Source: Peptococcaceae bacterium (GTDB lineage Bacteria > Bacillota > UBA994). Taken from it: DNA of 64,000 nt. A model generated the notes under the pieces. The model was not told the origin of the DNA, ran no database searches, and saw only the letters and a program-made list of their open reading frames with translations. The position numbers and the translations under genes were made by a program. This document shows positions 1,282 through 60,817 of the stretch, in pieces. Location: contig JAGXSS010000040.1 in NCBI GenBank assembly GCA_018334055.1, forward strand, positions 13,407 through 77,406, in the 5' to 3' direction. Position 1 is the first letter of the stretch, and each line of letters starts with the position of its first letter.

Positions 1282-1521
1282 ACAGCACCTCCTATGGCTA
1301 GGGGAACTCGCTTACGATAAATATATCACAATTTGGGTTAAATATATTAACTAATAATTAAGACTTTAATAAGAGTCGAGCAGAGAAGCGAATGAGTGCA
1401 AGTGAAAAGAGTAACATTTATTCGTGAAAAATATCACCTAGGTTAAGACCACAGCTGGAGGATGGCGAAGTATACACTTTGTCCCAGCGGAGAAATATAT
1501 ATCAGAGGGTGGGTGGGGTGT

Positions 1522-3042
1522 ATGCAGAAAACCACACGCAAGATGCGAAAACCTGTGCCTGTAAGGGAGCTAACAAAGGCAGACATCGAGAAGGGCCAAT
1601 TCAGCGGCAATCTTAAGCAGGACTGCGACGCTCTCAGGGCGGTGCTCTCAGCCTCCGCTGACTTAAAGGAACGGACGATTAAGATGAGCGATGGAGCACC
1701 CTGTGCGGTGCTCTACTTTGCCAACCTCACTAATCTAGCCCTCATTAGTGAGTCGATTATTGAACCTCTGCAAAGACACGGCGGGGCACAAGGCATCCTG
1801 CATATAGCAGAGCAGGTGGTCCATGTGCCTGAGTACAAGGCCGAAGGTGATATATACCAGGTGGCCTGCGCTTTGTCCGCCGGGACAGTGGCCGTCCTCC
1901 TCGCAGGTGAGGCAGAGGCTCTGCTCCTGCCCCTCCTCGAACTGGAGCAGCGCCCGATAGAGCGTGCCATCCAAGAAGATATTTTGATTGGTCCGCATGA
2001 GAGTTTTAGCGAGAGCCTCGGAAAGAATCTCGCCATTTTGCGCCGGCGGGTCGGGTCGCCCGACCTGAAGATCAAGCAATTGATGGTCGGCCGTCGTTCT
2101 CGCACCACGGTCGCCATTATCTACTTGGCAGAGGTGGCGCAGCCCATACTTGTCGCGGAGATGGAAAAGCGTATCCAGCGCATCGACATAGACTTCACCT
2201 ACGGCATAAATTATCTGACCGATTTTTTAGATGATGAGCCCCACTCGGTGTTCCCGACCCTCAGATCAACGGAAATCCCGGTGCGGGTGGTAGCGGCTCT
2301 AATGGAAGGGCGCATTGCCGTCATGGCTGAGGGTGACGGGAGCGCGCTCATCGCCCCTACTTTTGCGCCTGAATTTTTGCAGGCTTCTGAGGATTACTTT
2401 GACCGGCCTCTCTCCGCTACCTTTTTTCGTTTTATTCGGATGGTGGGGCTAATGATTAGCGTCTTCCTCCCCGGAACGTGGTTAGCGCTAGTATCGTTTC
2501 ACCACGGCATCCTCCCCACGCCGCTCTTTAACTCCATTCAGTCTGGGCGGGAAGGGGTGCCGCTCCCTACGGTAGTAGAAATTTTTGTGCTCATCTTAGC
2601 TTTCGACCTCATTGTCGAGGCCAGTACCAGGATGCCTACCCGCATCGGCCAAGCCTTAGGCATTGTCGGCGGTATTATCCTCGGGCAGGCAGCAGTACAG
2701 GCAGGCTTAGTGAGCCCCGCCTTGGTCATTATTGCCGCCCTCACCGGCCTTGCTATCTTTACGCAACCCTCCATTACCTTCATTTCTGTCCTCAGACTTC
2801 TCAAGTACCCGGTGCTGATCGCCGGCAGCCTGCTCGGCATTTATGGTGTCGTCTGGGCGCTCATCTTTATGCTGATCACCGTTACCGCCATACGGTCCTT
2901 TGGCTACCCCTACATGTTTCCTGTCGCGCCGTTTAATTTGGAGGGGGAGCTGGATATCTTCATAGGGGTACCGAAGTTGTGGCATGCTAAGAGGCAAAAA
3001 TTTCTTTCGCCGCAGAATGAAAGGCGCCTTGACTATGAGTAA
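1522..3042 (+). CDS. Spore germination receptor subunit A (GerA/GerKA family)
   Basis: GP(H)ESF.E, N.A.LRRR, ALMEGRIAV, FLQASEDY, REGVP, IVGGIILGQAAVQAGLVSP motifs; start placed at ATG 1522. Confidence 0.93.
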   Translation: MQKTTRKMRKPVPVRELTKADIEKGQFSGNLKQDCDALRAVLSASADLKERTIKMSDGAPCAVLYFANLTNLALISESIIEPLQRHGGAQGILHIAEQVVHVPEYKAEGDIYQVACALSAGTVAVLLAGEAEALLLPLLELEQRPIERAIQEDILIGPHESFSESLGKNLAILRRRVGSPDLKIKQLMVGRRSRTTVAIIYLAEVAQPILVAEMEKRIQRIDIDFTYGINYLTDFLDDEPHSVFPTLRSTEIPVRVVAALMEGRIAVMAEGDGSALIAPTFAPEFLQASEDYFDRPLSATFFRFIRMVGLMISVFLPGTWLALVSFHHGILPTPLFNSIQSGREGVPLPTVVEIFVLILAFDLIVEASTRMPTRIGQALGIVGGIILGQAAVQAGLVSPALVIIAALTGLAIFTQPSITFISVLRLLKYPVLIAGSLLGIYGVVWALIFMLITVTAIRSFGYPYMFPVAPFNLEGELDIFIGVPKLWHAKRQKFLSPQNERRLDYE

Positions 3043-4117
3043 GGTCAGAGTTGGCCTAGCGCAGTCCACGCTCGCCTTGTTCGTCGTCACCATCGGCACG
3101 GTATTTTTCCCGGTGGCGGGGGTCGTCGTCCCCCTCGCCGGTGCCTCTGGCTGGGTCGCCGTGCTCCTCGCCTTTTTCATAGCACTGCCCTGGGTCTACA
3201 TGGCTACCTATGTAGCGGGTTCCGCCACGGCGCCTAATTGGGGACAGGCAGTCAAGGCATGGCTCGGGCCGTTCGTGGGGCGCATTTTTCTCATGTACTT
3301 TGCCTTTGTTTGGATGTGGCTGGGGGGGTTGTTGCTTGGGCAGGCGGGCCTGGTATTTCACGAAATGGCCATGCCCCGCACTCCTCCCATCGTGCTCTGT
3401 TTCGCCCTGCTCATATTAGTCATGCGGGTTGGATGGCATGGCCTTGAGGTCTTCGTGCGTACCATAGAAGCTCTGGCCATGTTCAGCATATTGGGACTGG
3501 TTGGTCTTCTGGTGGGGATGCTGCCGCTAGTAAGGATTGATCAATTGCGTCCACTTATTGACGCGCCCCCCGCTCTCATAGCTCATGCCGCCATGTTTTG
3601 CCTGCCCTGGGCTATGGAGGGGGTGCTCTTCGCCCTGTTCATCGGCGTGTATGCGCGCAAGCGCCTCGGTATGGGGGGTTACTTTGCCGCGGCGGTGGGG
3701 GCAGCGGGGTTTTCACTGGCCTTTCTCACCATGATGACCGTAGGAGTCTTGGGCCGCGGGGTCACCGAGAGCTACCTCTATCCCACAGCCATACTCATCC
3801 AAGTGGCGCTGCCGGGGTTCTTTCTTGAGGGGGTAGAGATGTTCATGTATCCGCTATGGGTGGTCGCTTCCTATTTTAAGGTAGGGGCCGCATTCATTAT
3901 GGTTTCGGAGAGCCTAGCCGGCGTATGGCAGGGTTTTAAGCAGCCCTACCGCACCCTCTTATTGGGAGGAGTGTTCATGTTCATCGCCACCCGGCCACGG
4001 AATATTTTTGAGTTGGTGGCCTCCATCGGCCGGGTGGACAATACTTTCTTTATGTCCTTTTATTTCATACTGCCGGCACTAGCCCTCTGGGTGAGGGTTA
4101 GTCGGCGCGAGGAGTGA
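3035..4117 (+). CDS. Spore germination receptor subunit B (GerAB/APC permease family)
   Basis: Polytopic membrane protein overlapping the gerA stop; GW.AVLL, E.F.R.IE and LE..M motifs; operon position. Confidence 0.85.
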   Translation: MSKVRVGLAQSTLALFVVTIGTVFFPVAGVVVPLAGASGWVAVLLAFFIALPWVYMATYVAGSATAPNWGQAVKAWLGPFVGRIFLMYFAFVWMWLGGLLLGQAGLVFHEMAMPRTPPIVLCFALLILVMRVGWHGLEVFVRTIEALAMFSILGLVGLLVGMLPLVRIDQLRPLIDAPPALIAHAAMFCLPWAMEGVLFALFIGVYARKRLGMGGYFAAAVGAAGFSLAFLTMMTVGVLGRGVTESYLYPTAILIQVALPGFFLEGVEMFMYPLWVVASYFKVGAAFIMVSESLAGVWQGFKQPYRTLLLGGVFMFIATRPRNIFELVASIGRVDNTFFMSFYFILPALALWVRVSRREE

Positions 4118-4121
4118 GAGT

Positions 4122-5324
4122 ATGACCTACGCCAAATGGGGCCTAGTGTTGATGATTAGCCTACTGCTGGTTGGCTGTTGGGACCAGCAAGAAATCACGG
4201 ACTTAGCCTCAATCGCAGGCCTTGGTTTTGACGTCGGGAGCTATCCCCATACAGTGAGAATGTCGTTTATGACTTCGCCGCCGCGGGCCGGCTTGGGAGG
4301 TGAGGGAGGTGACGGAAGCAGGCTGCGAGTCATGACGGTGGAGGCCGGGTCCTTTACGGAGGCTCTGATTTTGCTGCAAGGGCATATCCGCCGGCAGCCT
4401 TTCTTCTTGCACTTGGGCTTTATACTTTTTGGGGAGGAATTAGCCAAGAGCGGTCTAAATGGCCAAATCGCCGCTCTGCAGGGGAGGAGCACCATCCGCG
4501 GCTCCGTACCCATATTTGTGGCGCAAGGAACGGCAGAGGAGATTTTAACCGCTCGCTCCGGCATCGGGCACGCCCCAGGGCAAGACATAGCGGACTTGCT
4601 CGACAATCTTGCCGAAGCACCGCTGGGCCGCCCCACCACGATTCATAATGTACGCAATGTCCTTGGAGGTCTGGGGAGCGAAATCACAGCACCCATTCTG
4701 GAGCTTACCCCCCTGCGCCTACAGGCTGGTGATGAAAAACCGGAAGTCGGCCTAGGCTTGGCCAATGAACAGTTGCGGGAAGTTTTTGTGCGCCGCCTCG
4801 CCGTCTTCCGCCGTGACAGATGGGTGGCGGACTTTGACCAGTACCTTGTTCAGACCTTCGTTCTGCTGACCGGAACAACCAAAATGGGTAGTCTGAATAT
4901 CACTAATCCGGCTGATCCAAAAAGCATTATGGGCATAGCTATCGCCAACTTTCAAGCGCGGTTTGAGATTAAGATTGAGGGGGATAAAGTAGAGGTCGAG
5001 ATCTTGCCGCGAGTGAAAGCCATTGTGCGCGAAGTAAGCGGCAGTTACATCCTGCGGGACAGGGGTCTTGAACCCATTGCCCAAAATATAGAGCAAGAGG
5101 TTAACCGCCAGGTTATCGCCGTCATGTCCTTTTTACAGGAGCAGAAGGCCGATGCCCTAGGCATTGGCGACATGATTAGGCGGCAACAACCAGATGTTTG
5201 GGCGAGGCTTGAGCCGCGCTGGGGGCAGCTGTTCCCCCAAATAACGGTCAGCGTCAATACTGAGGCCGAAATCACCTCTACGGGCATGCTGGTGCGATTC
5301 TTTGAGATTAAGCGCGGGGAATGA
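4122..5324 (+). CDS. Ger(x)C family spore germination lipoprotein
   Basis: Lipobox LLVGC followed by WDQQEITDLASIAGLGFD; FFLHLGFILFGEELAK; C-terminal DALGIG...W. Confidence 0.92.
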   Translation: MTYAKWGLVLMISLLLVGCWDQQEITDLASIAGLGFDVGSYPHTVRMSFMTSPPRAGLGGEGGDGSRLRVMTVEAGSFTEALILLQGHIRRQPFFLHLGFILFGEELAKSGLNGQIAALQGRSTIRGSVPIFVAQGTAEEILTARSGIGHAPGQDIADLLDNLAEAPLGRPTTIHNVRNVLGGLGSEITAPILELTPLRLQAGDEKPEVGLGLANEQLREVFVRRLAVFRRDRWVADFDQYLVQTFVLLTGTTKMGSLNITNPADPKSIMGIAIANFQARFEIKIEGDKVEVEILPRVKAIVREVSGSYILRDRGLEPIAQNIEQEVNRQVIAVMSFLQEQKADALGIGDMIRRQQPDVWARLEPRWGQLFPQITVSVNTEAEITSTGMLVRFFEIKRGE

Positions 5325-5381
5325 GACTCCCCCTAAATAGACATAGACTATGCCCCCGCCGGATATACTCCCAGAGGGGGG

Positions 5382-5909
5382 GTGTATATCTTGCGGGGGC
5401 AGTCCTATTTTTATACTATGGTCATCACCGTTGCGGTTTTATTGTTTGTTGGCGCAGGGCTGTATTGGGCCTTCTTTTACACGCCCGCCGTGGGGACAGG
5501 TTCTCCTCGGTACTGGCTCTACTTTGCTAATCGCGAGGCTACAGAGGTGGTCGGCGAAAAAAGGGCGCAGAAAGGAGTGCTAACTGGCGAAACTATAATC
5601 GAGGAACTCATCAAGGGACCAAGAACCCAGAATCTGTGGCCCACACTGCCGCAGGGGACCCGGCTTCTTTCGTTTTTTGTCCAAGGCAGAATTGCCTATG
5701 TCGACTTTTCCCGCGAGGTCAAAGAGAATTTTGGTGGGGGTACGGCGAACGAACTGATGCTGGTATACTCGGTAATAGCCTCTCTGACCGAGCTTCCAGA
5801 AATAGCCGCCGTACAGTTCTTGGTGGAAGGTCAGGTGGAGGAGAGTATCTGGGGACATATTGATACCAGTAGCCCGCTCATGCCTGACGAGCAGTTTATA
5901 GCCAGATAA
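5382..5909 (+). CDS. GerMN domain protein
   Basis: N-terminal TM; LYFAN, ELIKGP, LPQGTRLLS, AYVDFS, YSVIASLTE, VQFLVEG. Confidence 0.85.
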   Translation: MYILRGQSYFYTMVITVAVLLFVGAGLYWAFFYTPAVGTGSPRYWLYFANREATEVVGEKRAQKGVLTGETIIEELIKGPRTQNLWPTLPQGTRLLSFFVQGRIAYVDFSREVKENFGGGTANELMLVYSVIASLTELPEIAAVQFLVEGQVEESIWGHIDTSSPLMPDEQFIAR

Positions 5910-12164: not shown

Positions 12165-13358
12165 ATGCAAATCGCAGATCGCATAACCAGCATGCCGAAG
12201 TACTTGTTCGCGGAAATAGACAGACTGAAGTGGGAGGCCAAGGCGAAGGGTGTCGACCTCATTAACCTTGGCGTGGGCGACCCCGATGTCCCGACGCCGG
12301 ATTTCATCGTGGATGCCTTGGTAGACACCATCAAGCACAAACCGTCAACCCATCAGTATCCCGAATATGATGGTGACCCCGCTTTTCGGGCCAGTGCGGC
12401 GGCGTACTTAAAAAGACGCTTCGCGCTTGATATCCATGCCGATCGGGAACTAGTGGGGCTCATTGGCTCAAAGGAAGGCATCGCCCATTTCGCCCTGGCA
12501 GTAGCGAACCCGGGGGACGTAGTCCTAGTGCCGGACCCAGCTTACCCAGTCTACTTTATGTCTGCGGTTTTAGCGGGCGCAGAGCCATACCGCATGCCGC
12601 TATTGGAAAAAAACAGCTATTTACCGGACTTTTCGGCCATCCCGGCGGATGTTTTACGTCGTGCCCGCCTCATGTACTTGAACTACCCCAATAACCCCAC
12701 CTCTGCTGTGGCTGATATCGCGTTCTTTAGAGAGGCGGTGGCCTTCGCCAAGCAGCACAATATTGTCATTTGCCATGACAATGCCTATGCGGAGATTACG
12801 TTTGACGGCTTTGTCGCCCCGAGTATTTTGCAGGTAGAGGGAGCAAAGGAATGCTGTATCGAGCTTTATTCGCTCTCTAAACCTCTCAATATGACAGGGT
12901 GGCGTGTTGCTTTTGCCTATGGCCATGAACAACTGATCTCTGCCCTCAGGAAGGTGAAGACAGCTACGGACAGTGGCCAGTTCACGGCCATTCAGTTTGC
13001 CGCCATGGAAGGATTAGCCAGCCCAGATGAGACTATTGAGCGCATGCGTGGCATATACACGGCGCGCCGGGATCGTGTCGTGGCCATGCTCAATAATCTT
13101 GGACTGAAGTGTGAGCTGCCCCGGGCTTCCTTGTATGTCTGGCTTGGCATTCCCCCAGGGTTTGCCTCTTCGCAGGACTTTGCCATGGAGCTTCTCGCGA
13201 GCCAAGGGGTAATTGTTTCGCCGGGGGTCGGTTTCGGTCAATATGGTGAAGGGTATTTTCGCATCTCCCTCACCACCCCGGACCCGCGCCTAGACGAAGG
13301 ACTAGAGCGCATCCGTAGGTTCATCACAAGCCACAGGGTAGCGTACGGCGGCGTCTAA
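12165..13358 (+). CDS. dapL: LL-diaminopimelate aminotransferase
   Basis: YLFAEID, LGVGDPD, GSKEGIAH, NYPNNPT, HDNAY, SK..NMTGWR. Confidence 0.8.
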   Translation: MQIADRITSMPKYLFAEIDRLKWEAKAKGVDLINLGVGDPDVPTPDFIVDALVDTIKHKPSTHQYPEYDGDPAFRASAAAYLKRRFALDIHADRELVGLIGSKEGIAHFALAVANPGDVVLVPDPAYPVYFMSAVLAGAEPYRMPLLEKNSYLPDFSAIPADVLRRARLMYLNYPNNPTSAVADIAFFREAVAFAKQHNIVICHDNAYAEITFDGFVAPSILQVEGAKECCIELYSLSKPLNMTGWRVAFAYGHEQLISALRKVKTATDSGQFTAIQFAAMEGLASPDETIERMRGIYTARRDRVVAMLNNLGLKCELPRASLYVWLGIPPGFASSQDFAMELLASQGVIVSPGVGFGQYGEGYFRISLTTPDPRLDEGLERIRRFITSHRVAYGGV

Positions 13359-13482
13359 GAGCAGGCAGTCGCCCTTGTCCTCTATGCGCACCATGCCGAT
13401 CGGCAGGGACTTCCAAACGATGATGGAGCACTCGAAAGTGCTCCTTAATCTTCAGTTCTTTGCCGCGCGAAAAATCAGTCAT
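13324..13482 (-). CDS. Possible small hypothetical protein (52 aa)
   Basis: GGGAGGTG RBS before ATG 13482; MTDFSRGKELKIKEHF...; overlaps dapL 3' end; no recognisable family. Confidence 0.25.
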   Translation of the reverse strand: MTDFSRGKELKIKEHFRVLHHRLEVPADRHGAHRGQGRLPALRRRRTLPCGL

Positions 13483-13535: not shown

Positions 13536-13564
13536 GCATAAGGTTGTCTAGGCTGAGAAAAATA
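13536..13564 (+). promoter_or_regulatory. Putative forespore SigF/SigG-type promoter
   Basis: GCATA-N14-GAGAAAAATA; -35 matches GYATA, -10 and spacing imperfect. Confidence 0.35.
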
Positions 13565-13608
13565 GCACTGTAGGCGATAGCCTGACAAACATCAAGGGAG
13601 GAAAGAAA

Positions 13609-14346
13609 ATGACAGATCATCAGCAAGCCAATCTCCCCGATTGGGCGCGGAGTAGCCACGCCATCGGCCCCGCTCAGTATGGAACAGGCTACGGCAATTT
13701 CAACCAAGGTCAAGGCGGCTATAGCCAAGGGCCTAGCTACACCAACTACAACAATCCCCAAGGTAGTGGCGGTGGCTACGGACAGCAGCAGTACAGTGGC
13801 GGCCAGGGTGGCAACTTGCCTAACTGGGCGTATGCGAACCCGCAGGGAACTAACCAGGGCAACACGGGCGGGGGCTATGGGCAACAGCAGGTAGGTGGTG
13901 GCAACTACAACAACCCTCAAGGCAGTGGCGGTGGTTTTGGACAGCAGCAGTACAGCGGCGGCAACTACAACAACCCCCAAGGCAGTGGCGGTGGTTTTGG
14001 ACAGCAGCAGTACAGCGGTGGTCAGGGTGGCAACTTACCTAACTGGGCGTATGCGAACCCGCAGGGAGCGAACCAGGGCAACACGGGCGGTGGCTATGGG
14101 CAGCAGCAGTACAGCGGCGGCAACTACAACAACCCCCAAGGCAGTGGCGGTGGCTATGGGCAGCAGCAGTACAGTGGTGGCCAGGGTGGCAACTTGCCTA
14201 ACTGGGCCTTTGCGAATCCGCAGGGAGGAAGCCAAGGCCATGTAGGGGGAGGCTTTAGCCAGGAGCAGGGAAACCGCAATTCCGGTCAGCATGGCCCTAG
14301 TTACACCGACTACAACACCTATACGCCGGGCACCGGCCCACGCTAA
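13609..14346 (+). CDS. Gly/Gln/Asn/Tyr-rich low-complexity repeat protein (prion-like, 245 aa)
   Basis: Strong RBS AGGGAGG, own terminator; repeats differ mostly at synonymous positions, supporting coding in this frame. Confidence 0.85.
   Translation: MTDHQQANLPDWARSSHAIGPAQYGTGYGNFNQGQGGYSQGPSYTNYNNPQGSGGGYGQQQYSGGQGGNLPNWAYANPQGTNQGNTGGGYGQQQVGGGNYNNPQGSGGGFGQQQYSGGNYNNPQGSGGGFGQQQYSGGQGGNLPNWAYANPQGANQGNTGGGYGQQQYSGGNYNNPQGSGGGYGQQQYSGGQGGNLPNWAFANPQGGSQGHVGGGFSQEQGNRNSGQHGPSYTDYNTYTPGTGPR
13744..14271 (+). repeat. In-frame mosaic tandem repeats A-B-A-A-B-A-B' (A=60 nt, B=99 nt)
   Basis: A=NYNNPQGSGGG(Y/F)GQQQYSGG x4; B=QGGNLPNWA(Y/F)ANPQG... x3. Confidence 0.95.
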
Positions 14347-14359
14347 CAATTGCGAAACC

Positions 14360-14389
14360 AAAAGTAAGCCCTGCGGGGCTTACTTTTTT
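14360..14389 (+). terminator. Intrinsic (bidirectional) terminator
   Basis: AAAAGTAAGCCC-TGCG-GGGCTTACTTTTTT. Confidence 0.9.
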
Positions 14390-18953: not shown

Positions 18954-21428
18954 GTGGCAGTAAAACTTCTTTCTCCCGAGGAATATCTAGGATTCCCCGT
19001 TGGCGCTGACCGGTGTCTCGCGAATTGGGAACAAATTGCGGAGTATGCGAGGCTAGCTGCCACCAACAGCCCGAGAATTAGTGCTAATACACTGGGGGTG
19101 ACCACTGAAGGACGCCCATTTATCGCGCTGACCATTACATCTCCTGCCAACCACGAGCGACTAGCAGAAATAAGGGATATACAAAAGAGGCTGGCTAACC
19201 CGCGTGGGCGGAGCGCGGAGGAACTGGCTCGGCTGGTAGAAGCGGGAAAGACAGTCGTCCTCGTGACTTGCGGCATCCATGCCACCGAGGTGGGCGCGTC
19301 GCAGATGAGCATGCAACTGATTTACGAACTGGCGACCAGTGATACCCCCGAGACGCAGGAGATTCTTTGTAATACTGTTCTTCTCCTGGTGCCCTCTCTA
19401 AACCCTGATGGGCTCGATATGGTGGTCAGTTGGTACGAAAAAACTATTGGCACGCCTTACGAGGGCACGGCACCGCCTTTCTTGTACCACAAGTACGCGG
19501 GTCATGACAATAATCGTGACTGGTTTATGTTTACCCAACAGGAGACGCGTCTAGCTGTCGAAAAACTTCATAACTATTGGTGCCCACATATTGTCCTTGA
19601 TCAACACCAACAGAATTCGGACGGACCGCGCTTGGTGTTGCCCCCTTTTATCGACCCCTACGACCCAAATGTCGATCCAATCATCAGGCAGGGCGTGGCC
19701 TGGCTTGGCCAGGCTATAGCTATGGAGTTGACCGCGCAAGGGAAGACCGGAGTTATGACCAATGCCATTTACGATGCTTGGTCCCCAAGCCGGGCCTACC
19801 AGCACTATCATGGTGGAGTGCGCATTCTCTCTGAGGCGGCCAGCGTGCGTATCGCCACCCCGATCAACATAGACAGCAAAGATTTACAGGCCGGGAGGGG
19901 TCAAGACCCGAGGATTGCGAGCTGGAACCAACCCGAACCCTGGCCCGGGGGGCAATGGCGCCTGCAAGACATTATAGAGTATGACAAAATATGCGCCTGG
20001 GCTTGCCTGATGCACGCCGCAAAATATCGTCGCCAGTGGCTAAGAAATTTCTCGCTGGTGAGCAGGCGAGCGTTGTTAGTCAAGGATGGTGTTTACGGGT
20101 ACCTCATTCCTAAAGAACAAAGGGATGTCTTGGTCATGGTGGAACTGTTGGGGATTCTGATGTTTGCGGGCGTAGAGGTGCATGAGGCTCAAGGTGTCTT
20201 TACTGCCGACGGCATGGACTACGTTTCCGGCACTTTCGTCATCTTGTTGCACCAACCCTACGGTGCTTTTGCCAAGACGATGCTGGAAAAACAGCTTTAC
20301 CCGGAGCTACGCCTCTACCCTGGTGGTCCACCTAAGCGTCCCTATGATACAACCGCCCATAGCCTGCCCATGCAAATGGGCGTAACAGCCGTGGAGGTCA
20401 GAGCACCCTTTACAGCAGAGCTCCTCGAATTGACCAAGACCCCCTCTTTCTCTCGTCCAACCTTAAGTACGACTGATGACTCCTGGCTCTACATTCGCCC
20501 GGAAGCCAACCGCAGCTTCACAGCTTTTTTGAAGTTATGTGGGGCGGGTTTTGACGTCTACAGACTGCACCGGGCGAGAGATGGTGCCAGTCTGCCGCCC
20601 GGCACATTCTTGGTCAAAGCCTGTGCTACAGCATGTGCTTTGGTTATGGATTTGAGCGTGAAATATGGTCTGAAGGTAGGTGTGCTCGATGACCTCGACC
20701 AAGCGGCCATGGGGAGAGTCAAAGCGCCTAGGGTGGGAATCTATCAGAGCAGTGTGCCCAACCCGGATGAAGGTTGGTTGAGATTTGTGCTTGAGGAGCA
20801 TGGATTTCCATATGTATCCTTAAGCGATCGGGATATTAGGCGAGGGAATTTGTCGGCTGGCTACGATGTATTGGTTTTGCCCTCTGCGGAGCCTAATGTC
20901 ATGCTCGACGGTCACCCTCCGGGAACCTACCCGTCAGACTACACGGGGGGCTTAGGGGCAAGCGGGGCATCGGCCTTGAGAACCTTTGTCGATGAGGGCG
21001 GCACTCTCTTGGCCATAGATAAAGCCAGTGAATGGGCGATTCGCGAACTAAGTCTGCCGGTGAGCAATGTGGTTTCCGCCTGGCCCGAGACAGAGTTCTT
21101 TGTCCCCGGCTCCTTCTTGCGCGTGGTCATGGACACGAACCATCCTTTAGGATACGGCATGCCGCGGGAAACGGCAGTAGTTTTCTCTCATAGCCCTGCG
21201 TTTAGTACGGATGGCCAAGGTAGGGTGGTCGGGAAGTACCCGGTGGTTAATCCCCTGCTGTCCGGATGGATTTTGGGCGCCGAAAGGCTGTACGGGCGTG
21301 GAGCCTTGGTTCTGTGTGGCTATGGTGCGGGCAAGGTGGTGCTGGTCGGTTTTAGGCCATATTTCAGAGCCCAGGCGCGCGGGACATACAAGGTGCTCTT
21401 TAACGCTCTGCTTTATGCGACCAGCTAA
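18954..21428 (+). CDS. M14 zinc carboxypeptidase with C-terminal GATase-like domain
   Basis: IHATE (HxxE), NPDG, GHDNNRDW, LDQHQ; no signal peptide seen. Confidence 0.88.
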   Translation: MAVKLLSPEEYLGFPVGADRCLANWEQIAEYARLAATNSPRISANTLGVTTEGRPFIALTITSPANHERLAEIRDIQKRLANPRGRSAEELARLVEAGKTVVLVTCGIHATEVGASQMSMQLIYELATSDTPETQEILCNTVLLLVPSLNPDGLDMVVSWYEKTIGTPYEGTAPPFLYHKYAGHDNNRDWFMFTQQETRLAVEKLHNYWCPHIVLDQHQQNSDGPRLVLPPFIDPYDPNVDPIIRQGVAWLGQAIAMELTAQGKTGVMTNAIYDAWSPSRAYQHYHGGVRILSEAASVRIATPINIDSKDLQAGRGQDPRIASWNQPEPWPGGQWRLQDIIEYDKICAWACLMHAAKYRRQWLRNFSLVSRRALLVKDGVYGYLIPKEQRDVLVMVELLGILMFAGVEVHEAQGVFTADGMDYVSGTFVILLHQPYGAFAKTMLEKQLYPELRLYPGGPPKRPYDTTAHSLPMQMGVTAVEVRAPFTAELLELTKTPSFSRPTLSTTDDSWLYIRPEANRSFTAFLKLCGAGFDVYRLHRARDGASLPPGTFLVKACATACALVMDLSVKYGLKVGVLDDLDQAAMGRVKAPRVGIYQSSVPNPDEGWLRFVLEEHGFPYVSLSDRDIRRGNLSAGYDVLVLPSAEPNVMLDGHPPGTYPSDYTGGLGASGASALRTFVDEGGTLLAIDKASEWAIRELSLPVSNVVSAWPETEFFVPGSFLRVVMDTNHPLGYGMPRETAVVFSHSPAFSTDGQGRVVGKYPVVNPLLSGWILGAERLYGRGALVLCGYGAGKVVLVGFRPYFRAQARGTYKVLFNALLYATS

Positions 21429-36626: not shown

Positions 36627-36983
36627 GTGACCTCGATGGACAAAAAAATAGCAGTAATTGTACTGCTACTGGCGGTGCTGATGGGGGTCGGGGTTCTTTA
36701 TTGGCGCTACGTCACGCCCTCCGGGCAGCAGGCTACCATTTTGGTGGACAACAGGCCGGTCGAGACCGTGGTCCTCGACCCTGCATTGGGGATGAGGCAG
36801 GTCGTGGTGCAAGGCGTACGCGGGGAGACCGTCATAGAAATCGATGGTCCTTCGATACGTATCATAGCCTCAGACTGTCCGGACAAACTATGCATTAAGA
36901 TGGGTCGTAAGAGTAGACCGGGCGAGGTCATAGTCTGCCTGCCCAATCGAGTTGTAATTAGAATTGATGGCAACGAGCAATAG
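36627..36983 (+). CDS. NusG domain II-containing membrane protein
   Basis: N-terminal TM; I..SDCPDKLC.K.G...PGE.IVCLPNRVVI. Confidence 0.9.
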   Translation: MTSMDKKIAVIVLLLAVLMGVGVLYWRYVTPSGQQATILVDNRPVETVVLDPALGMRQVVVQGVRGETVIEIDGPSIRIIASDCPDKLCIKMGRKSRPGEVIVCLPNRVVIRIDGNEQ

Positions 36984-41856: not shown

Positions 41857-41924
41857 TCGGTAGAGCAAAAGGGCACCCCAATGGCTCTGACCTTGTCCCC
41901 TCGACCGAAGGACATGTCTTCATT

Positions 41925-42092
41925 GTGGGGCAGGTTTCCTGACTTCGGGATTGGCGCGTCCGGCTCCTTCCCATCTGCCAACGCAGACAGTGGCTTATGC
42001 CGGTTGCTACCCGATACAGTGGCGGGACCGTTCAGGCTTGTAACCTGATTCCCTTTTAATCCCCAGTTTGGGGAACCCTCACAAAGGCTATT
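41925..42092 (-). ncRNA. Cobalamin riboswitch (btuFCD)
   Basis: AAAAGGGAAUCAGGU...CGGUCCCGCCACUGU...GCCACUG...GGGAAG...GUCAGGAAACCUGCC. Confidence 0.95.
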
Positions 42093-42169
42093 TAGTTACA
42101 GGAACAGTATAGCACGGGGAACCTAAAATATAAAGGGCACATGAAGAACGTCAACGTCAGCTAGGCTTG

Positions 42170-48880: not shown

Positions 48881-48946
48881 AGGACAAAGCTAGGTAACCC
48901 AAAGCTTTGACCCAGTCCCCTCGACCGCAGGACGGCGTCGTATACG

Positions 48947-49110
48947 GCATGGCAGGTCTCCTGGCTTAGGGATAAACGCGCCTAGCACCTTCCCATTTGC
49001 GCGAGCAAACAGTGGTTGTTGCTAAGTACTACCCTATACAGTGGCGGGACCGCTCAGGATTTTAACCTGATTCCCTTTTAACCCTTGTTACCCAAGGGCA
49101 CCATGCAGTT
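48947..49110 (-). ncRNA. Cobalamin riboswitch (cblTS-cob operon)
   Basis: AAAAGGGAAUCAGGU...CGGUCCCGCCACUGU...CCACUG...GGGAAG...GCCAGGAGACCUGCC. Confidence 0.95.
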
Positions 49111-49218
49111 TATTCAGTTCAGTCCTGAGTATAGCGCATAGAGTGTAAGTGCGCAATGTGCGCAATCACTCATAAAATCCAACCAAAGGACAAATGGCTC
49201 ACGCTAGGAATTCCAGCC

Positions 49219-57124: not shown

Positions 57125-57199
57125 GCGCCCGTAGCTCAGTGGATAGAGCGCCGGACTCCGGATCCGGGTGCGGAGGTTCGATTCCTCTCGGGCGTACCA
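57125..57199 (+). tRNA. tRNA-Arg(CCG)
   Basis: Cloverleaf, anticodon loop CT-CCG-GA, TTCG, encoded CCA. Confidence 0.95.
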
Positions 57200-57246
57200 T
57201 GTCTAGATGTCAGAGGGCAGAGGTTGAAAATTAGTTGGCCAAGTGG

Positions 57247-57275
57247 TTGACGGACTGCTCCTCAACAGGTATACT
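57247..57275 (+). promoter_or_regulatory. SigA promoter for tRNA operon
   Basis: TTGACG-N17-TATACT. Confidence 0.75.
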
Positions 57276-57286
57276 ACTAAATGCGC

Positions 57287-57362
57287 GGGAGCATAGCTCA
57301 GCTGGGAGAGCACCTGCCTTACAAGCAGGGGGTCATAGGTTCGAACCCTATTGCTCCCACCA
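57287..57362 (+). tRNA. tRNA-Val(TAC)
   Basis: Cloverleaf, CT-TAC-AA loop, CCA. Confidence 0.97.
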
Positions 57363-57367
57363 CCTAT

Positions 57368-57443
57368 GGAGTCGTGGTGTAGCGGTAAACATGCCGGCCT
57401 GTCACGCCGGAGATCGCGGGTTCGATTCCCGTCGACTCCGCCA
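57368..57443 (+). tRNA. tRNA-Asp(GTC)
   Basis: Cloverleaf, CT-GTC-AC loop, CCA. Confidence 0.97.
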
Positions 57444-57454
57444 TTTAGCAAGAT

Positions 57455-57530
<76 letters not shown>

Positions 57531-57564
57531 TCCTTGTAGCTAAATAGCGGGATACCATTAACAA

Positions 57565-57639
57565 GCGGAAGTAGCTCAGCGGTAGAGCATCGCCTTGCCA
57601 AGGCGAGGGTCGAGAGTTCGAATCTCTTCTTCCGCTCCA
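57565..57639 (+). tRNA. tRNA-Gly(GCC)
   Basis: Cloverleaf, TT-GCC-AA loop, CCA. Confidence 0.97.
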
Positions 57640-57689
57640 TAAGTTCTTGGTCCCAGCTGCCGCCATGGCGGTTGGGGTTTTGATTTCGA

Positions 57690-57764
57690 GGCGGCATAGC
57701 CAAGCGGTAAGGCAGAGGTCTGCAAAACCTCTATTCCCCAGTTCAAGTCTGGGTGCCGCCTCCA
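57690..57764 (+). tRNA. tRNA-Cys(GCA)
   Basis: Cloverleaf, CT-GCA-AA loop, CCA. Confidence 0.96.
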
Positions 57765-57787
57765 AACTTTTATTAACTTTTATTTAT

Positions 57788-57876
57788 GCCGAAGTGGCGA
57801 AATTGGCAGACGCAAGGGACTTAAAATCCCTCGGTTCGTGAGGACCGTGCCGGTTCGATTCCGGCCTTCGGCACCA
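57788..57876 (+). tRNA. tRNA-Leu(TAA)
   Basis: Long variable arm, CT-TAA-AA loop, CCA. Confidence 0.96.
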
Positions 57877-58057: not shown

Positions 58058-60817
58058 GTGAACATACTTGAGTATAGCGACATTGACTATTCAAAAGTGA
58101 AGCGACAATACGAGAAGGTTGCCAGATGCCTAGAAAGGGATGACTTTCGCTCCGCTGCCGTAAAGAAGCTGTCGGAGCATGGGCTATACAGTGCTAGGCT
58201 CGATGATTCTAACCGCCTCATATTTAAGCTGGTTCAATATCAAGAGATGCGCTATGCCTTGTTGTTAGAGGTGGTTCTTAATCACGCCTACGACAAGTCC
58301 AAGTTTTTAAGGGGAGCCAAAGTCGACGAGGCGAAGATACCGCTCATTGAGTGCGAAGCAGAAATAGAAACGCAGTCTTTGCCGCAAGTTACCTATGTCA
58401 ATCCGGCAGATAAGCGCTTTCATTTCTTAGATAAGATAGTATCCTTCGACCCCGAGCAGCAAAACGTATACAATGCGCCTTTCCCGCTTATTCTGATCGG
58501 GCCTGCCGGTAGTGGTAAGACTGTCCTGACGCTCGAGAAGATGAAGCTGTTTCATGGGGAAGGTCTGTATGTCACCCTGTCGCCGTATCTTGCCGAAAGC
58601 GCGAGGAACCTCTATTACAGCAACCATTACGAAAATAAAGAGCAGGACATTTTTTTCCTCTCCTTCAGGGAATACTTGGAGACGATACGCGTGCCGGACG
58701 GCAGAGAGCTGAGCTATAGAACGTTCGCCGAGTGGCTGTCGCGATTCCCGAAACAGCAACGAGTGACAGACGCACATCGCCTCTATGAAGAGTTTCGCGG
58801 GGTGATCACGGGCTCTACCGTGGACAAGCCATACTTGAGCCGCGAGGACTACATCAATCTCGGCGTTAGGCAGTCCATCTACCTTGATACCGAGCGCGAA
58901 TTAGTCTACGGCCTCTTTGAAAAGTACCTAGTGCTGCTGCGGGACAACGGCCTTTATGACCCCAACATTCTTGCGCACGGGTACATCGGGGATGTTAAGC
59001 AGCAATACGATTTTGTAGTGGTCGATGAAGTCCAAGATATTACAAACATCCAACTTCAGCTTATCTTAAAGAGCCTTAAGAACCCTGCCCATTTTATGCT
59101 CTGTGGCGATTCCAACCAGATTGTCCACCCCAACTTCTTTTCCTGGAGCGGGTTAAAGTCTATGCTCTACAACAGCGCAGAACTTGAGAGCAAGAGAGTA
59201 ACGAGAGTCCTGCAGTCGAACTTCCGTAATTCCAGGGCTATAACCGACCTAGCGAACAGGCTTGTCCGGATCAAACAGAAGCGCTTTGGTTCCATTGATA
59301 AAGAGAGCACTTATCTTATGAACAGCCACGATGAAAAGTTGGGCGAAGTAGTGTTTCTGCGCGACACCGACAAGGTTAAGAGCCAAATGAACAACAGTAT
59401 AAGGCGTTCTGCTAAAGTTGCCGTAATTGTGATGCGCAATGAAGATAAGGATTTAGCCCGTAAGCACCTCGATACCCCTCTCTTGTTCACCGTGCAGGAG
59501 GCCAAGGGGCTAGAGTACGAGAAGGTTGTGCTGTTTAATTTTGTTTCCGGGGAGCGGCAGAGCTTTCAAGAGATAATCCGTGGGGTGGCCGAAGCAGACA
59601 TGGAAGGGGATATCCTCTACATGCGGGCTGCGGACAAAACGGACAAATCCCTAGAAATCTACAAGTTTTTCATTAATTCCTTGTATGTTGCCGTCACCCG
59701 TGCCGTTAACAAGCTTTATATAATCGAAAGCGATGCTGGACACCGGATGCTGCAGGTGCTCGGACTAGAGCGCCCCCTTGACCAACTAACCATGACCACA
59801 GAGCAGTCCACCAATGAAGAGTGGCAGGCGGAAGCCCGCAAGTTAGAGCTTCAGGGCAAGCAGGAGCAAGCCGATGAGATAAAACGCTCCATCTTAAAGA
59901 CACAACCGGTACCTTGGGAGTCTTTTACTGGCCAGCGAGTCATAGAGTTAGTCGCGCAGATATGCACGGCCAAAGATAATCCGCAAAGACCTCGCAAAGC
60001 TCTTTTTGAGTATGCTCTCTTTTACGATGCGCCTGCGCTCATTCGCTTCCTAAGCGCACACAACTATGACAAAGCACGGCTGATCTACTCGGTGCGTGAA
60101 GGAATGCCATTTTTCAACCTGCCCTTATATGAACAGCAAAAGGCGAATCTTGACGCCAAGCTTCTCCCGAAATACGCAGGGCATCTAGATAAAGAAGTTG
60201 TCAAGCAGTGTGGGGTCTACGGCATCGACCACCGCACGGAGCTTAACGTCACACCGTTAATGCTTGCCGCAAGGGCCGGCAATGCAGCCTTGGTTAAAAT
60301 GTTGTTGTCCGCAGGGGCCAACACGGATCTCACGGATAACTATGGGATGACGGCATGGCAAATTGCCCTACTCAGGACAATAACCAAGAAGGACTATGAA
60401 CCATCAAGGTTCTTCCAGATTAACGGCTTGCTTTCATTTTCTAGCGTAAGCCTCAAGGTTGAAGAAAAGCTGACCAAACTAAGCAACAATCAGGGTGAGT
60501 TTCTGCTCTTTCACGTTCTGTTTGTGTTGGTAATGCCTAAAATCAACCCGAAGCATCTAGGGCAGGTCACTATTAGCGCTGCTCACCTTGCTAAATACAT
60601 AGAGGCCTTGCCTGACAGCGTCATTGCCGACTACAGAAAGAAGCGGCAATACATATCAGGGCTTCTCTCCAAGAACGAGGTCAGCTCCGAGAATCCATAC
60701 AACAGAAAGCTCTTTACACGCGTACGACAAGGCTACTACATTCTAAACCCAGCGCTTTCGGTTCGCCACGGAGACGAATGGCTGCCTATTTACAGCTTCG
60801 CCGGCGCTGAGCTCTAG
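58058..60817 (+). CDS. Multidomain protein: RelE-like N-terminus, UvrD-like SF1 helicase, ankyrin repeat, probable C-terminal winged helix
   Basis: GPAGSGKT, VVDEVQD, GDSNQ, NFRNS, EAKGLEY, LYVAVTRA; TPLMLAARAGNAALVKMLLSAGAN; N-terminal VKKL...YSARLDDSNRLIF. Confidence 0.88.
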   Translation: MNILEYSDIDYSKVKRQYEKVARCLERDDFRSAAVKKLSEHGLYSARLDDSNRLIFKLVQYQEMRYALLLEVVLNHAYDKSKFLRGAKVDEAKIPLIECEAEIETQSLPQVTYVNPADKRFHFLDKIVSFDPEQQNVYNAPFPLILIGPAGSGKTVLTLEKMKLFHGEGLYVTLSPYLAESARNLYYSNHYENKEQDIFFLSFREYLETIRVPDGRELSYRTFAEWLSRFPKQQRVTDAHRLYEEFRGVITGSTVDKPYLSREDYINLGVRQSIYLDTERELVYGLFEKYLVLLRDNGLYDPNILAHGYIGDVKQQYDFVVVDEVQDITNIQLQLILKSLKNPAHFMLCGDSNQIVHPNFFSWSGLKSMLYNSAELESKRVTRVLQSNFRNSRAITDLANRLVRIKQKRFGSIDKESTYLMNSHDEKLGEVVFLRDTDKVKSQMNNSIRRSAKVAVIVMRNEDKDLARKHLDTPLLFTVQEAKGLEYEKVVLFNFVSGERQSFQEIIRGVAEADMEGDILYMRAADKTDKSLEIYKFFINSLYVAVTRAVNKLYIIESDAGHRMLQVLGLERPLDQLTMTTEQSTNEEWQAEARKLELQGKQEQADEIKRSILKTQPVPWESFTGQRVIELVAQICTAKDNPQRPRKALFEYALFYDAPALIRFLSAHNYDKARLIYSVREGMPFFNLPLYEQQKANLDAKLLPKYAGHLDKEVVKQCGVYGIDHRTELNVTPLMLAARAGNAALVKMLLSAGANTDLTDNYGMTAWQIALLRTITKKDYEPSRFFQINGLLSFSSVSLKVEEKLTKLSNNQGEFLLFHVLFVLVMPKINPKHLGQVTISAAHLAKYIEALPDSVIADYRKKRQYISGLLSKNEVSSENPYNRKLFTRVRQGYYILNPALSVRHGDEWLPIYSFAGAEL

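Follow-up and report, generated by a model that had tools for sequence, protein, structure and literature searches.

Bacterial prion-like or low-complexity regions are usually appended to folded proteins, for example Rho, SSB and RNase E. Sup35 carries an oligopeptide repeat with the sequence PQGGYQQYN, and elastomeric proteins have a G/Q/Y/P/S repeat composition with regularly spaced Tyr. Two coat proteins of B. subtilis also have a biased composition: YeeK is rich in Gly, Tyr and His, GerQ is rich in Gln, and the mother cell makes both (sigma-K or sigma-E). Prion-like proteins are frequently predicted in bacteria (PMC6400439). In Bacillales spores the Q/N-rich repeat protein SspE serves for storage; clostridia lack it, and YeeK is listed as Bacilli-specific (PMC3533761). 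GerG of C. difficile is a lineage-specific spore protein with Asn-rich repeats that form a gel in vitro (PMC5241399).

The repeat protein and its family

The protein described here is encoded in a stretch of DNA of 64,000 nucleotides (the window), at 13609-14346 on the plus strand, stop codon included. It has 245 amino acids and is a nearly uncharged low-complexity repeat protein. Its main residues are G (70, 28.6%), Q (40, 16%), N (31, 13%), Y (22, 9%), S (17) and P (16), with His at 1.6%. There is no Lys and no Cys, the charged residues number seven (3 D, 1 E and 3 R; 2.9%), and I, L, V and M total only 8, including 4 L and one Met. Measured against the proteins of the same window, N+Q is in excess (29%, binomial P = 1e-28) and charge is depleted (P = 3e-14).

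These residues are organized into motifs and repeats. The first copy of a Trp motif with the general form [LMIV]PxWA is NLPDWA at 13630-13647 (aa 8-13); in all, NLP[ND]WA begins at aa 8, 69, 142 and 195, and the last three copies, all NLPNWA, lie within a repeat array. GPSYTNYN occurs at 13729-13752 (aa 41-48), and GPSYT[ND]YN copies begin at aa 41 and 229. The array occupies 13744-14250 (aa 46-214) and has the order A-B-A-A-B-A-B'. Unit A, NYNNPQGSGGG[YF]GQQQYSGG, begins at aa 46, 99, 119 and 172, and unit B, QGGNLPNWA[YF]ANPQG.NQGNTGGGYGQQQ, at aa 66, 139 and 192. At the DNA level the array has periods of 60, 159 and 219 nt with 86-91% identity (TRF). The tail, GPSYTDYNTYTPGTGPR, is at 14293-14343 (aa 229-245). 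A direct count of residues and motifs thus bears out the composition, motifs and repeat order that an earlier note on this DNA had given.

The same note had claimed that there is no signal peptide and no folded domain, and we concur. The N-terminus has no hydrophobic stretch, and searches of Pfam and NCBIfam with the 245-aa protein gave no meaningful family match. AlphaFold2 predicted zero secondary structure at a mean pLDDT of 42, from an alignment only three sequences deep, and the charge-hydropathy relation also classes the protein as disordered. Several other classes were considered and rejected. A secreted or cell-wall protein is ruled out by the lack of both a signal peptide and a hydrophobic segment, an RGG-type RNA-binding protein by the presence of just three Arg, and a His-rich metal-binding protein by the low His content, which varies among relatives. 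A hidden repeat fold such as a beta-solenoid found no support, since AlphaFold2 gave no structure, with the same three-sequence alignment.

Judged by its pattern of substitution, 13609-14346 is a complete, real gene under selection at the protein level. The pairs of unit A copies show 28 synonymous versus 4 non-synonymous differences; since the repeat copies differ mostly synonymously, the reading frame is real. The C-terminus differs from that of the orthologue at locus L001 by 7 synonymous changes and 1 non-synonymous change, and three contigs, obtained from ENA and JGI as independent sources, encode the identical 245-aa protein. The sequence GGGAGG at 13596-13601 (+), 7 nt 5′ of the ATG, reads as a ribosome binding site, and orthologues have a purine-rich one at the equivalent position. 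An intrinsic terminator is predicted at 14360-14389 (+), with a 12-bp stem, a UGCG loop and a T-run; its folding energy is -23.1 kcal/mol (z -4.2), and 0 of 200 shuffled sequences fold as well. Both signals agree with the earlier proposal that the gene has its own. Codon usage is more biased than that of adjacent genes (AAC 84% versus 49%, CAG 75% versus 52%), which fits high expression of the gene. This bias, like the aromatic spacing considered below, is partly an automatic result of recent repeat duplication.

We found eight full-length and three partial family members, all in one narrow clade of uncultured endospore-forming Bacillota that is represented by MAGs. When 1.84 billion representative proteins were searched with a HMMER profile, and in word-indexed searches, only P0001, P0002 and the 69-aa P0003 were retrieved; the remaining members were located via the conserved neighbouring gene. 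Gene callers often choose the wrong frame or strand in the repeat (for example in L014 and L016), so that such families are under-represented in protein databases. A literature search for SYTNYN, SHTNYN, LPNWA and YTDYN gave irrelevant matches only.

The full-length relatives have 175-293 aa and share both termini, which upholds the view that the protein stands alone and is not a fragment of a larger one. Their conserved core consists of two motifs, GPS[YH]TNYN and [LMIV]PxWA, and a C-terminal tail, HGPSYTDYN[NTS]Y[TR]PG[PT]GPR. This tail is near-identical in 8 of the 9 members whose C-terminus is known (P0002 ends differently), and all members with an N-terminus have [LMIV]PxWA at residue 8-9. 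Orthologues have 4-8 copies of the GPSYTNYN motif against 2 in the 245-aa protein, and contain 10-13% Q, 14-23% G and more S, T and H. The Q-rich unit that resembles Sup35 and FUS is a feature of the window lineage only. Of the NLPNWA pattern singled out earlier, the [LMIV]PxWA part is family-wide, and repeat number does vary between lineages. Family-wide conservation makes the suggested role of the Trp motif in partner binding or recognition a fair reading. A possible 69-aa allele (P0003, in DRR093101) is without the repeat array; if it is real, the array may be dispensable.

Genomic context and upstream region

Germinant-receptor genes (GerA, GerB and GerC) and a Germane-domain gene are located at 1462-5909 of the window, from which it follows that the host is a spore former. 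Neighbouring genes also include an aminotransferase and a D-glutamate-cyclase-like protein. In most related lineages a divergently transcribed partner gene is intact and encodes a small protein of 95-118 aa. This protein has a confident AlphaFold2 model with weak ACT-like similarity only, and comparison of the model with PDB folds gave no significant match. In the window, a decayed copy of the partner gene is present at 13326-13482 on the minus strand in two frames: residues 1-26 are in one frame (13482-13405), a gap of approximately 37 codons follows, and a different frame encodes the C-terminal part (IGMVR..LLLDAAVRYP).

On the other side, the next genes downstream in the window and six other loci (L001, L004, L005, L006, L007 and L016) are tldD-pmbA, in the same orientation. 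In L017, three unrelated genes intervene, and in L011 rsmF directly follows the repeat-protein gene and tldD/pmbA is absent from that place. Because all these lineages are close relatives, the gene order is probably inherited, and the adjacency probably reflects ancestral order rather than an operon.

Upstream of the gene is a conserved promoter-like element, GCATA-N14-GAGAAAAATA, at 13536-13564 (+), which resembles the -35 and -10 elements of forespore sigma-F promoters. In eight aligned loci the GCAT and G.G.A.A.TA bases are invariant and the spacer is variable. Of 16 loci, 13 have the pattern GCATn-N14/15-GnGnAnAnTA exactly once, always 5′ of the gene, and two more have a GCATG variant. The power of such footprinting is limited by the closeness of the lineages, whose TldD proteins are 80-81% identical.

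Compared with the sigma-F consensus GYATA / GGnnAnAHTR (Wang 2006 as quoted in bioRxiv 10.1101/2023.12.01.569620), which is uncalibrated for the host clade, the motif matches 4-5 of the 5 specified bases in the first element and 6 of the 7 in the second; its -10 element lacks the second G. The motif is closer to the sigma-F than to the sigma-G consensus. Sites with at most one mismatch to sigma-F occur 5 times in the window against 2.2 expected, and the other one-mismatch site examined, at 36862, falls within an ORF. Scans of the window for exact sigma-F and sigma-G consensus sequences revealed no further site, and looking for the consensus strings in the literature gave only noise. The region upstream of the gerA operon has a similar -10-like sequence, GTGAAAAATA, with no matching -35. 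An alpha/beta-type SASP signature, sought in all six frames of the window as a source of a calibrating forespore promoter, was not found. No usable sigma-A promoter was found on the plus strand upstream of the gene. On the minus strand, the conserved bases also spell a sigma-A-like TTGTCA-18-TATTTT, a weak candidate promoter of the sigma-A type for the divergent partner gene.

Between the promoter-like element and the ribosome binding site, where the mRNA is predicted to begin, there is a conserved inverted repeat, UAGGC-GAUA-GCCUG (13571-13584, +). In eight loci AGGC...GCCT followed by ACA is invariant and the loop is variable. Among four orthologues, three have a predicted leader hairpin of -6.8 to -8.4 kcal/mol with the ribosome binding site left unpaired; in the fourth, L006, the minimum-energy fold of the leader pairs otherwise. 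A search of Rfam with the leader gave no match. The repeat could be either a 5′-terminal stem-loop or an operator.

Candidate roles

The germinant-receptor operon and the sigma-F-like promoter, neither of which the earlier note had recognized, make a dormancy protein more likely than a vegetative scaffold. Tentatively, we favour a self-associating matrix or storage protein that is made at sporulation time and built to outlast dormancy, a role that the sequence evidence makes quite possible. We infer the sigma factor, when and where the gene is expressed, that the protein self-assembles, that it serves in protection or storage, and that it is degraded.

Two properties of the family bear on this role. 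The first is the distribution of aromatic residues, which are evenly spaced (gap CV of 0.36-0.61 versus 0.89 in shuffled sequences); only one adjacent aromatic pair occurs among six family members tested. Together with G/S/Q/N spacers and very few charges, this is the pattern expected of FUS-type sticker-and-spacer proteins. A review links even aromatic spacing to liquid-like assembly (PMC7865556). Family members have a GRAVY of -1.2 to -1.5 and a net charge of approximately 0. The second is chemical. The family has 0 Lys in 2,282 residues and 1 Cys, and Asn-Gly is seen once against approximately 62 expected; Gly-Asn is common. Avoidance of Asn-Gly could reflect a conformational constraint rather than one on chemical stability.

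For such a dormancy protein, we envisage the following sequence of events. The protein would be an abundant, disordered and essentially uncharged sticker-and-spacer protein that is part of the endospore programme in this narrow clade of uncultured Bacillota. Its gene would be transcribed as its own unit from the conserved promoter, which appears to be of a non-sigma-A, forespore sigma-F/sigma-G-like type, and the mRNA would start with a small stem-loop and carry a strong ribosome binding site. The product would remain unfolded, with evenly spaced Tyr, Phe and Trp acting as stickers among G/Q/N/S spacers. At high concentration in the dehydrating spore, self-association might give a gel, a condensate or a glass-like matrix. 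[LMIV]PxWA and GPS[YH]TNYN could be sites at which a partner or a protease binds or recognizes the protein, and the absence of Lys and Cys and near-absence of Asn-Gly might keep the protein chemically intact through a long dormancy. At germination the protein would be dissolved, and its probable degradation would release Gln, Asn and Gly, as with gamma-type SASPs in Bacillales. A more specific version is doubtful: a stand-alone protein made in the forespore that gels or vitrifies as the core dehydrates, a bacterial analogue of protectants such as tardigrade CAHS or plant LEA-type proteins, whose chemistry free of Lys, Cys and Asn-Gly was selected for dormancy lasting years, and in which the two motifs are handles for dissolution or degradation at germination.

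A somewhat unlikely alternative is a structural protein of the spore coat or outer layer, akin to YeeK or GerQ, made in the mother cell and cross-linked through its tyrosine (approximately 9-12%) as dityrosine, or through glutamine as a transglutaminase acyl donor. The sigma-E consensus is kmATATT / CATACAnT and that of sigma-K is AC / CATAnnnTA; neither fits the conserved upstream motif, which is closer to sigma-F. The protein is rich in Tyr and Gln and its host is a spore former, both of which are compatible with a coat protein; being free of Lys, it could donate Gln only and could not cross-link to itself. Low complexity and lineage specificity are typical of coat proteins (PMC3533761). On the other hand, no coat-protein family in Pfam or NCBIfam matches, and no laccase or transglutaminase gene is nearby among the annotated ORFs.

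About equally unlikely is a vegetative prion-like protein unrelated to sporulation, either a dedicated functional amyloid or a scaffold for aggregates or condensates that can be inherited or switched. The N+Q content, the scarcity of charged and aliphatic residues and the lack of predicted structure are as expected of such a protein, and its YNNPQGSGGGYGQQQY unit is akin to the Sup35 oligopeptide repeat. By a criterion attributed to Michelitsch and Weissman, such a region should have 30 or more Q+N within a stretch of 80 residues. The highest count is 29 in the 245-aa protein, a narrow miss, and only 21-24 in three orthologues. The Q-rich unit is not conserved among orthologues. By the definition of NQID proteins, a strong N/Q bias (P < 1e-10) with intrinsic disorder (PMC6400439), the 245-aa protein does qualify, given its P of 1e-28, from a simple binomial and not fLPS, and its pLDDT of 42. 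A phmmer search of all PDB chain sequences, including FUS and Sup35 fibrils, returned nothing at E <= 10. The resemblance to Sup35 and FUS noted earlier therefore holds for composition and for the unit itself, but extends neither to the family nor to homology with solved structures. High Gly and Pro, dispersed aromatics and the single adjacent aromatic pair disfavour a strong amyloid core; the evenly spaced aromatics, 14-29% Gly and 6-7% Pro point to a sticker-and-spacer gel or condensate over an amyloid prion. A vegetative role is also at odds with a spore-forming host in which a sporulation-type motif is conserved and no sigma-A-type promoter was found. The term "prion-like" applies to composition alone.

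It is improbable that the protein is a partner of TldD/PmbA, whether as a dedicated unfolded substrate, a decoy, a regulator or a microcin B17-like precursor processed by TldD/E. Ghilarov et al. are said to have found in 2017 that TldD/E breaks down unfolded peptides, and tldD-pmbA is immediately downstream on the same strand in seven loci including the window. Nevertheless, a strong terminator separates the two, the adjacency is broken in L017 and L011, and in these close relatives the order is probably inherited. Microcin B17-type peptides processed by TldD/E have a Gly/Ser/Cys-rich core, heterocycle synthetase neighbours and co-transcription with or dependence on TldD/E, and our locus does not have this combination. 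A RiPP or microcin-type product was rejected, as there is no Cys, no modification enzyme gene and no leader/core architecture, and the terminator precedes tldD.

Least probable, by a slight degree, is a fast-evolving orphan ORF in which a low-complexity expansion is tolerated without specific function: restriction to one clade, rapid divergence (36% identity where TldD keeps 81%), varying repeat number and the possible array-less allele would suit it, but synonymous changes predominate, the termini, motifs, promoter element and ribosome binding site are kept across all lineages, Lys and Asn-Gly are systematically excluded, and the gene stayed intact in the window lineage while its partner gene decayed.

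A conserved protein that is entirely of low complexity and has an apparently developmental promoter would be a clean system for studying the role of such sequences in bacteria. If it is a spore component, it bears on the origin of gel- or glass-like immobility inside the dormant spore, and on amino-acid storage in clostridial-type lineages without gamma-type SASPs. The near-total exclusion of Asn-Gly and Lys may be a simple signature of selection for long-term chemical stability that could be used to seek other dormancy proteins.

Comparison with known systems

The Sup35 N-domain and FUS-type domains share with the repeat protein an uncharged G/Q/N/Y/S composition, aromatic stickers in polar spacers and the lack of a predicted fold, and the YNNPQG..GYGQQQY unit is near PQGGYQQYN. 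However, there is no homology, and the 245-aa protein is a whole bacterial protein and not a domain fused to a folded module. In addition, its Q-rich unit is lineage-specific, it has conserved linear motifs containing Trp and Pro, and its assembly is a prediction. Resilin, spider MaSp2 (GPGQQ/GPGGY) and HMW glutenin also have G/Q/Y/P/S repeats with regular Tyr spacing. These are eukaryotic secreted proteins, whereas ours is without a signal peptide, and the likeness is compositional only.

YeeK and GerQ are, like our protein, small, of low complexity, lineage-specific and rich in Gly/Tyr or Gln. They are not homologous to it, and cross-linking of GerQ needs Lys, of which the repeat-protein family has none. 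GerG resembles it in lineage restriction, low-complexity repeats of variable number and predicted disorder. The two share no homology, however. GerG is produced in the mother cell under sigma-E, it abounds in Met and Pro (GMPNNMSNNMNSNM), and it has functional regions outside the repeats. The 245-aa protein has one Met and no similar repeat, and its upstream motif is not sigma-E-like.

SspE, the gamma-type SASP of Bacillales, is also Q/N/G-rich, repetitive, unstructured and stand-alone, and its hosts form spores. Sigma-G drives its expression in the forespore, and it serves as an amino-acid reserve, whereas the promoter of our gene is a putative one. The two proteins have no sequence similarity, and ours is approximately three times larger, without Lys and rich in Tyr and Trp. 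The cleavage motif of the GPR protease is E-[FIY]-[AG]-S-E-[FT]; the 245-aa protein, with one Glu, has no motif of this type, and LPNWA and GPSYTNYN are repeated instead. By analogy, the absence of SspE from clostridial lineages may leave a vacant niche that such a protein could occupy.

A stand-alone low-complexity gene and its reading frame

The repeat protein is encoded at window positions 13609-14346 (+), a gene of 245 codons with an ATG start. Its product is rich in Gly (28.6%), Gln (16.3%), Asn (12.7%), Tyr (9.0%), Ser (6.9%) and Pro (6.5%), and has no Lys or Cys, 3 Asp, 1 Glu, 3 Arg and 4 Leu. Measured against 26 long ORFs of the same window, the protein is extreme both in its surplus of Asn plus Gln (P = 1e-28) and in its shortage of charged residues (P = 3e-14). 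The motif NLP[ND]WA occurs at residues 8, 69, 142 and 195, and GPSYT[ND]YN at residues 41 and 229. Two repeat units are arranged in the order A-B-A-A-B-A-B', and Tandem Repeats Finder detects DNA periods of 60, 159 and 219 nt, with identities of 86-91%. An RBS (GGGAGG) can be read on the same strand 7 nt 5′ of the ATG, and a terminator at 14360-14389 (+), with a 12-bp stem and a T-run, follows the stop codon (-23.1 kcal/mol, z = -4.2). Direct reading thus bears out every detail that the earlier note had described for the ORF, its composition, motifs, repeat order, RBS and terminator.

Long ORFs also run through other frames of this gene and along the opposite strand, where its composition leaves no stop codons. 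Nonetheless, codon comparisons show that selection works on the G/Q/N/Y frame: all pairs among the four copies of unit A give 28 synonymous versus 4 non-synonymous codon changes, and of the differences from one orthologue in the C-terminal 17 codons, 7 are synonymous and 1 is non-synonymous. The identical protein is encoded on three contigs, drawn from two sources that are independent of each other, ENA and JGI. Codon bias exceeds that of the neighbouring genes (AAC 84% vs 49%, CAG 75% vs 52%). This would fit a highly expressed gene, but the figures are inflated because the repeats were duplicated recently.

The earlier note had also seen no folded domain, and structure prediction agrees. AlphaFold2 gave no secondary structure, a mean pLDDT of 42 and a pTM of 0.13, with confidence slightly raised only at the LPxWA motifs; the alignment behind it being shallow (three sequences), the model fits a disordered protein but is no proof of one. 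By charge and hydropathy the protein (mean hydropathy 0.35, net charge zero) also falls on the disordered side, the boundary being at 0.415.

A narrowly distributed family with a conserved core

The family is undescribed: Pfam and NCBIfam, searched with the repeat protein, have no matching model, and a literature search for the family motifs gave no match. In word-indexed searches of 5.8 billion proteins and a full HMMER profile search of 1.84 billion representatives, the sole matches were P0001 (175 aa), P0002 (234 aa) and P0003 (69 aa). Scans of genomic and metagenomic contigs added L004, a partial copy in “MAG: Bacillota bacterium isolate BS524”, and L005 (266 aa). Further copies were found through a conserved neighbouring small gene: L009/L017 (266 aa), L011 (293 aa), L014 (258 aa, NCBI MAG GCA_030696355.1) and L016 (292 aa), as well as the partial copies L013 and L015. 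The public gene call at L014 238-1066 is in the wrong frame (a 232-aa V/T/A-rich product) and that at L016 4124-5158 is on the wrong strand (159 aa). The composition keeps every other frame free of stops, and the miscalls explain in part why the family is scarce in protein databases.

All full-length members stand alone, are 175-293 aa long and have matching ends, namely an N-terminal x5-7-LP[DEGSA]WA and, in each except P0002, a C-terminal HGPSYTDYN[NTS]Y[TR]PG[PT]GPR. This excludes the alternative that the protein is a fragment of a larger one. The 69-aa P0003 (L007 1322-1531, Logan DRR093101) joins the N-terminal 34 and C-terminal 35 residues in frame, and differs from the window by a 528-nt deletion at a 7-nt microhomology (CCAAGG); it is either a real array-less allele or an assembly artefact. 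The lineages are closely related: between them TldD, encoded nearby, is 80-81% identical, yet the repeat protein only about 36%. The latter is a fast-evolving orphan limited to roughly one family-level clade.

The conserved core comprises both termini, GPS[YH]TNYN (2 copies in the window protein, 4-8 in other members) and [LMIV]PxWA followed by A[GN][QP][GQ], in 3-5 copies that are 32-85 residues apart. The Trp motif is therefore kept family-wide with variation in copy number, as the earlier note had asked to be checked. By contrast, the Sup35-like repeats to which that note drew attention are present in the window protein but absent from orthologues, NYNNPQGSGGG[YF]GQQQYSGG being confined to the window lineage. 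Orthologues have 10-13% Gln and 14-23% Gly, and more Ser, Thr and His than the window protein.

Other compositional features hold throughout the family. In the window copy (13609-14346) and those of L001, L005, L006, L009, L011, L014 and L016, 2,282 residues include no Lys and 1 Cys, with a net charge of about zero. Asn-Gly was seen once, versus about 62 occurrences expected from composition, and Gly-Asn occurs 69 times; the four members first analysed contain 45 distinct Asn contexts. The near-absence of Asn-Gly and the lack of Lys may reflect selection against deamidation and Lys chemistry. The spacing of aromatic residues is even (gap coefficient of variation 0.36-0.61, vs 0.89 in shuffles), with one adjacent aromatic pair in six members.

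Gene neighbourhood and the conserved upstream element

The window has a GerA / Spore_permease / GerAC operon, encoding a germinant receptor, and after it a Germane-domain gene (1462-5909, +), so its organism is an endospore former. Upstream of the repeat-protein gene lie genes for a DUF1450 protein, a D-glutamate-cyclase-like protein and a class I/II aminotransferase; downstream lie tldD and pmbA. This pair comes directly after the gene not only here but also at six related loci (L001, L004, L005, L006, L007 and L016). The adjacency does not reflect functional coupling, given the strong terminator, the three unrelated genes (DUF4829-like, Amidase_6-like and a 117-aa ORF) inserted between the repeat-protein gene and tldD at L017 6087-8665(-), and L011, where rsmF comes directly after the repeat-protein gene. 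We read the adjacency as inherited gene order. Amidase_6 is the domain found in YhbB, a sporulation protein of B. subtilis.

A partner gene of 95-118 aa (MxDFSRVxELESREYFRVIHHRL...), transcribed divergently, is the constant neighbour. Its product belongs to no Pfam family. Residues 1-85 are modelled confidently by AlphaFold2 as beta-beta-alpha-alpha-beta-beta, and comparison with PDB folds gave no significant match, only a weak ACT-like similarity. Although intact in most related loci, the gene is a pseudogene in the window lineage (13326-13482, -), with codons 1-26 intact, about 37 codons deleted, the remainder frameshifted and the 3′ remnant overlapping the end of the aminotransferase gene. 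The repeat protein is therefore not dependent on it.

Aligning eight loci revealed three invariant islands amid diverged DNA upstream of the repeat-protein gene. The first is GCAT[AT]; the second, 14-15 nt downstream, is TGnGnAnAnTA; the third, 6-7 nt further on and before the RBS, is an inverted repeat, AGGC-loop-GCCT, then ACA. The first two islands form the promoter-like element (13536-13564, +), and GCATW-N14/15-GNGNANANTA occurs exactly once per locus in 13 loci, always before the repeat-protein gene; L014 and L015 have GCATG in its place.

For sigma-F of B. subtilis the consensus is GYATA and GGnnAnAHTR, separated by 14 bp in the example given (Wang et al. 2006, quoted in bioRxiv 10.1101/2023.12.01.569620). 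The window site, GCATA-N14-GAGAAAAATA, fits 5/5 and 6/7 specified positions of this consensus, which is uncalibrated for the clade of the host. Invariant and variable alignment columns coincide with its specified and “n” positions, the one exception being the second G, shifted by one position. With up to one mismatch, the two strands (128 kb together) contained 5 matches vs 2.2 expected, hence a prior probability of about 0.002 for a match in the 125-nt intergenic region. No usable sigma-A-type promoter was found on the + strand upstream of the gene, the sole match overlapping the start codon. The invariant bases presumably also misfit the sigma-E, sigma-K, sigma-H and sigma-B consensus sequences. 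We call the element forespore sigma-F/G type because C. difficile SASP genes combine sigma-F-like promoters with dependence on both forespore sigma factors (PMC7438776). The sequence tips the balance, slightly, towards a promoter of this type. On the minus strand, the same bases can be read as TTGTCA-18-TATTTT, a weak sigma-A-like promoter from which the partner gene could be transcribed; this reading leaves the GCAT box and two invariant G's unexplained. A similar -10-like GTGAAAAATA lies upstream of the gerA operon, without a -35.

The inverted repeat (13571-13584, +; AGGC-N4-6-GCCT, then ACA), located 3′ of the promoter-like element and 5′ of the RBS, is also present at orthologous positions. 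It is predicted to fold at -6.8 kcal/mol with the RBS left free, and transcription is predicted to start (+1) at the base of this hairpin, an arrangement known from 5′-terminal mRNA stabilisers in Bacillus. It could be a 5′ mRNA stem-loop or, equally, an operator or other regulator binding site, since in L015 it is a perfect 12-nt palindrome (AGGCAATTGCCT).

Elsewhere, the window has two cobalamin riboswitches (41912-42096(-), 121 bits, and 48934-49120(-), 102 bits), each before a minus-strand gene block, and a cluster of seven tRNAs (57125-57876, +; Arg-CCG, Val-TAC, Asp, Phe, Gly-GCC, Cys and Leu-TAA). A 919-aa UvrD/SF1-type helicase (58058-60817, +) has ankyrin repeats near residues 713-771, an unusual pairing in a bacterium. 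There are two large Peptidase_M14 (zinc carboxypeptidase) genes, at 18954-21428(+), encoding 824 aa with a long C-terminal extension, and at 60933-62636(+).

A possible spore matrix or storage protein

The repeat-protein gene is real, stands alone and is under selection. Its product has an uncharged sticker-and-spacer composition with conserved short linear motifs and no predicted fold, and in this spore former the gene is preceded by a conserved promoter-like element of a type other than sigma-A. We tentatively propose a spore matrix or storage protein, a reading that as a whole we hold to be possible but short of probable, and whose functional steps we infer throughout. The protein would be produced during sporulation, most likely in the forespore, and would reach a high concentration, where its evenly spaced aromatics would drive self-association into a gel, condensate or glass-like matrix. 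Free of labile chemistries (Asn-Gly deamidation, Lys glycation or acylation, Cys or Met oxidation), it could outlast dormancy; at germination it would be dissolved and degraded, returning Gln, Asn and Gly.

The earlier note had envisaged an amyloid or condensate scaffold. Uniformly spaced aromatics and Gly favour liquid-like assemblies, whereas Gln and Ser make these harder and Asn promotes amyloid (PMC7865556). The pattern seen here therefore favours a tunable gel, and points away from a classical amyloid prion. A prion-like scaffold of vegetative cells is unlikely, composition being the one feature that fits it. We likewise doubt a coat protein made in the mother cell and cross-linked via Tyr or Gln: composition and spore context would suit it, but the promoter motif does not. 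A partner or substrate of TldD/PmbA is highly improbable given that the idea derives from inherited gene order, and a functionless orphan, contradicted by the selection signals, is about equally improbable.

The family, whose hosts are uncultured organisms, stands out from ordinary hypothetical proteins: the whole protein is low-complexity sequence, its promoter is apparently developmental and its chemical-stability signature is striking. In kind, it resembles disordered proteins already known as low-complexity, prion-like or spore-associated. GerG of C. difficile is a lineage-specific spore protein whose Asn-rich repeats gel in vitro and vary in number (PMC5241399), and SspE, a gamma-type SASP, is a lineage-specific low-complexity spore protein found only in Bacilli and absent from clostridia (PMC3533761). 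Both are precedents, although neither is homologous to the family described here.
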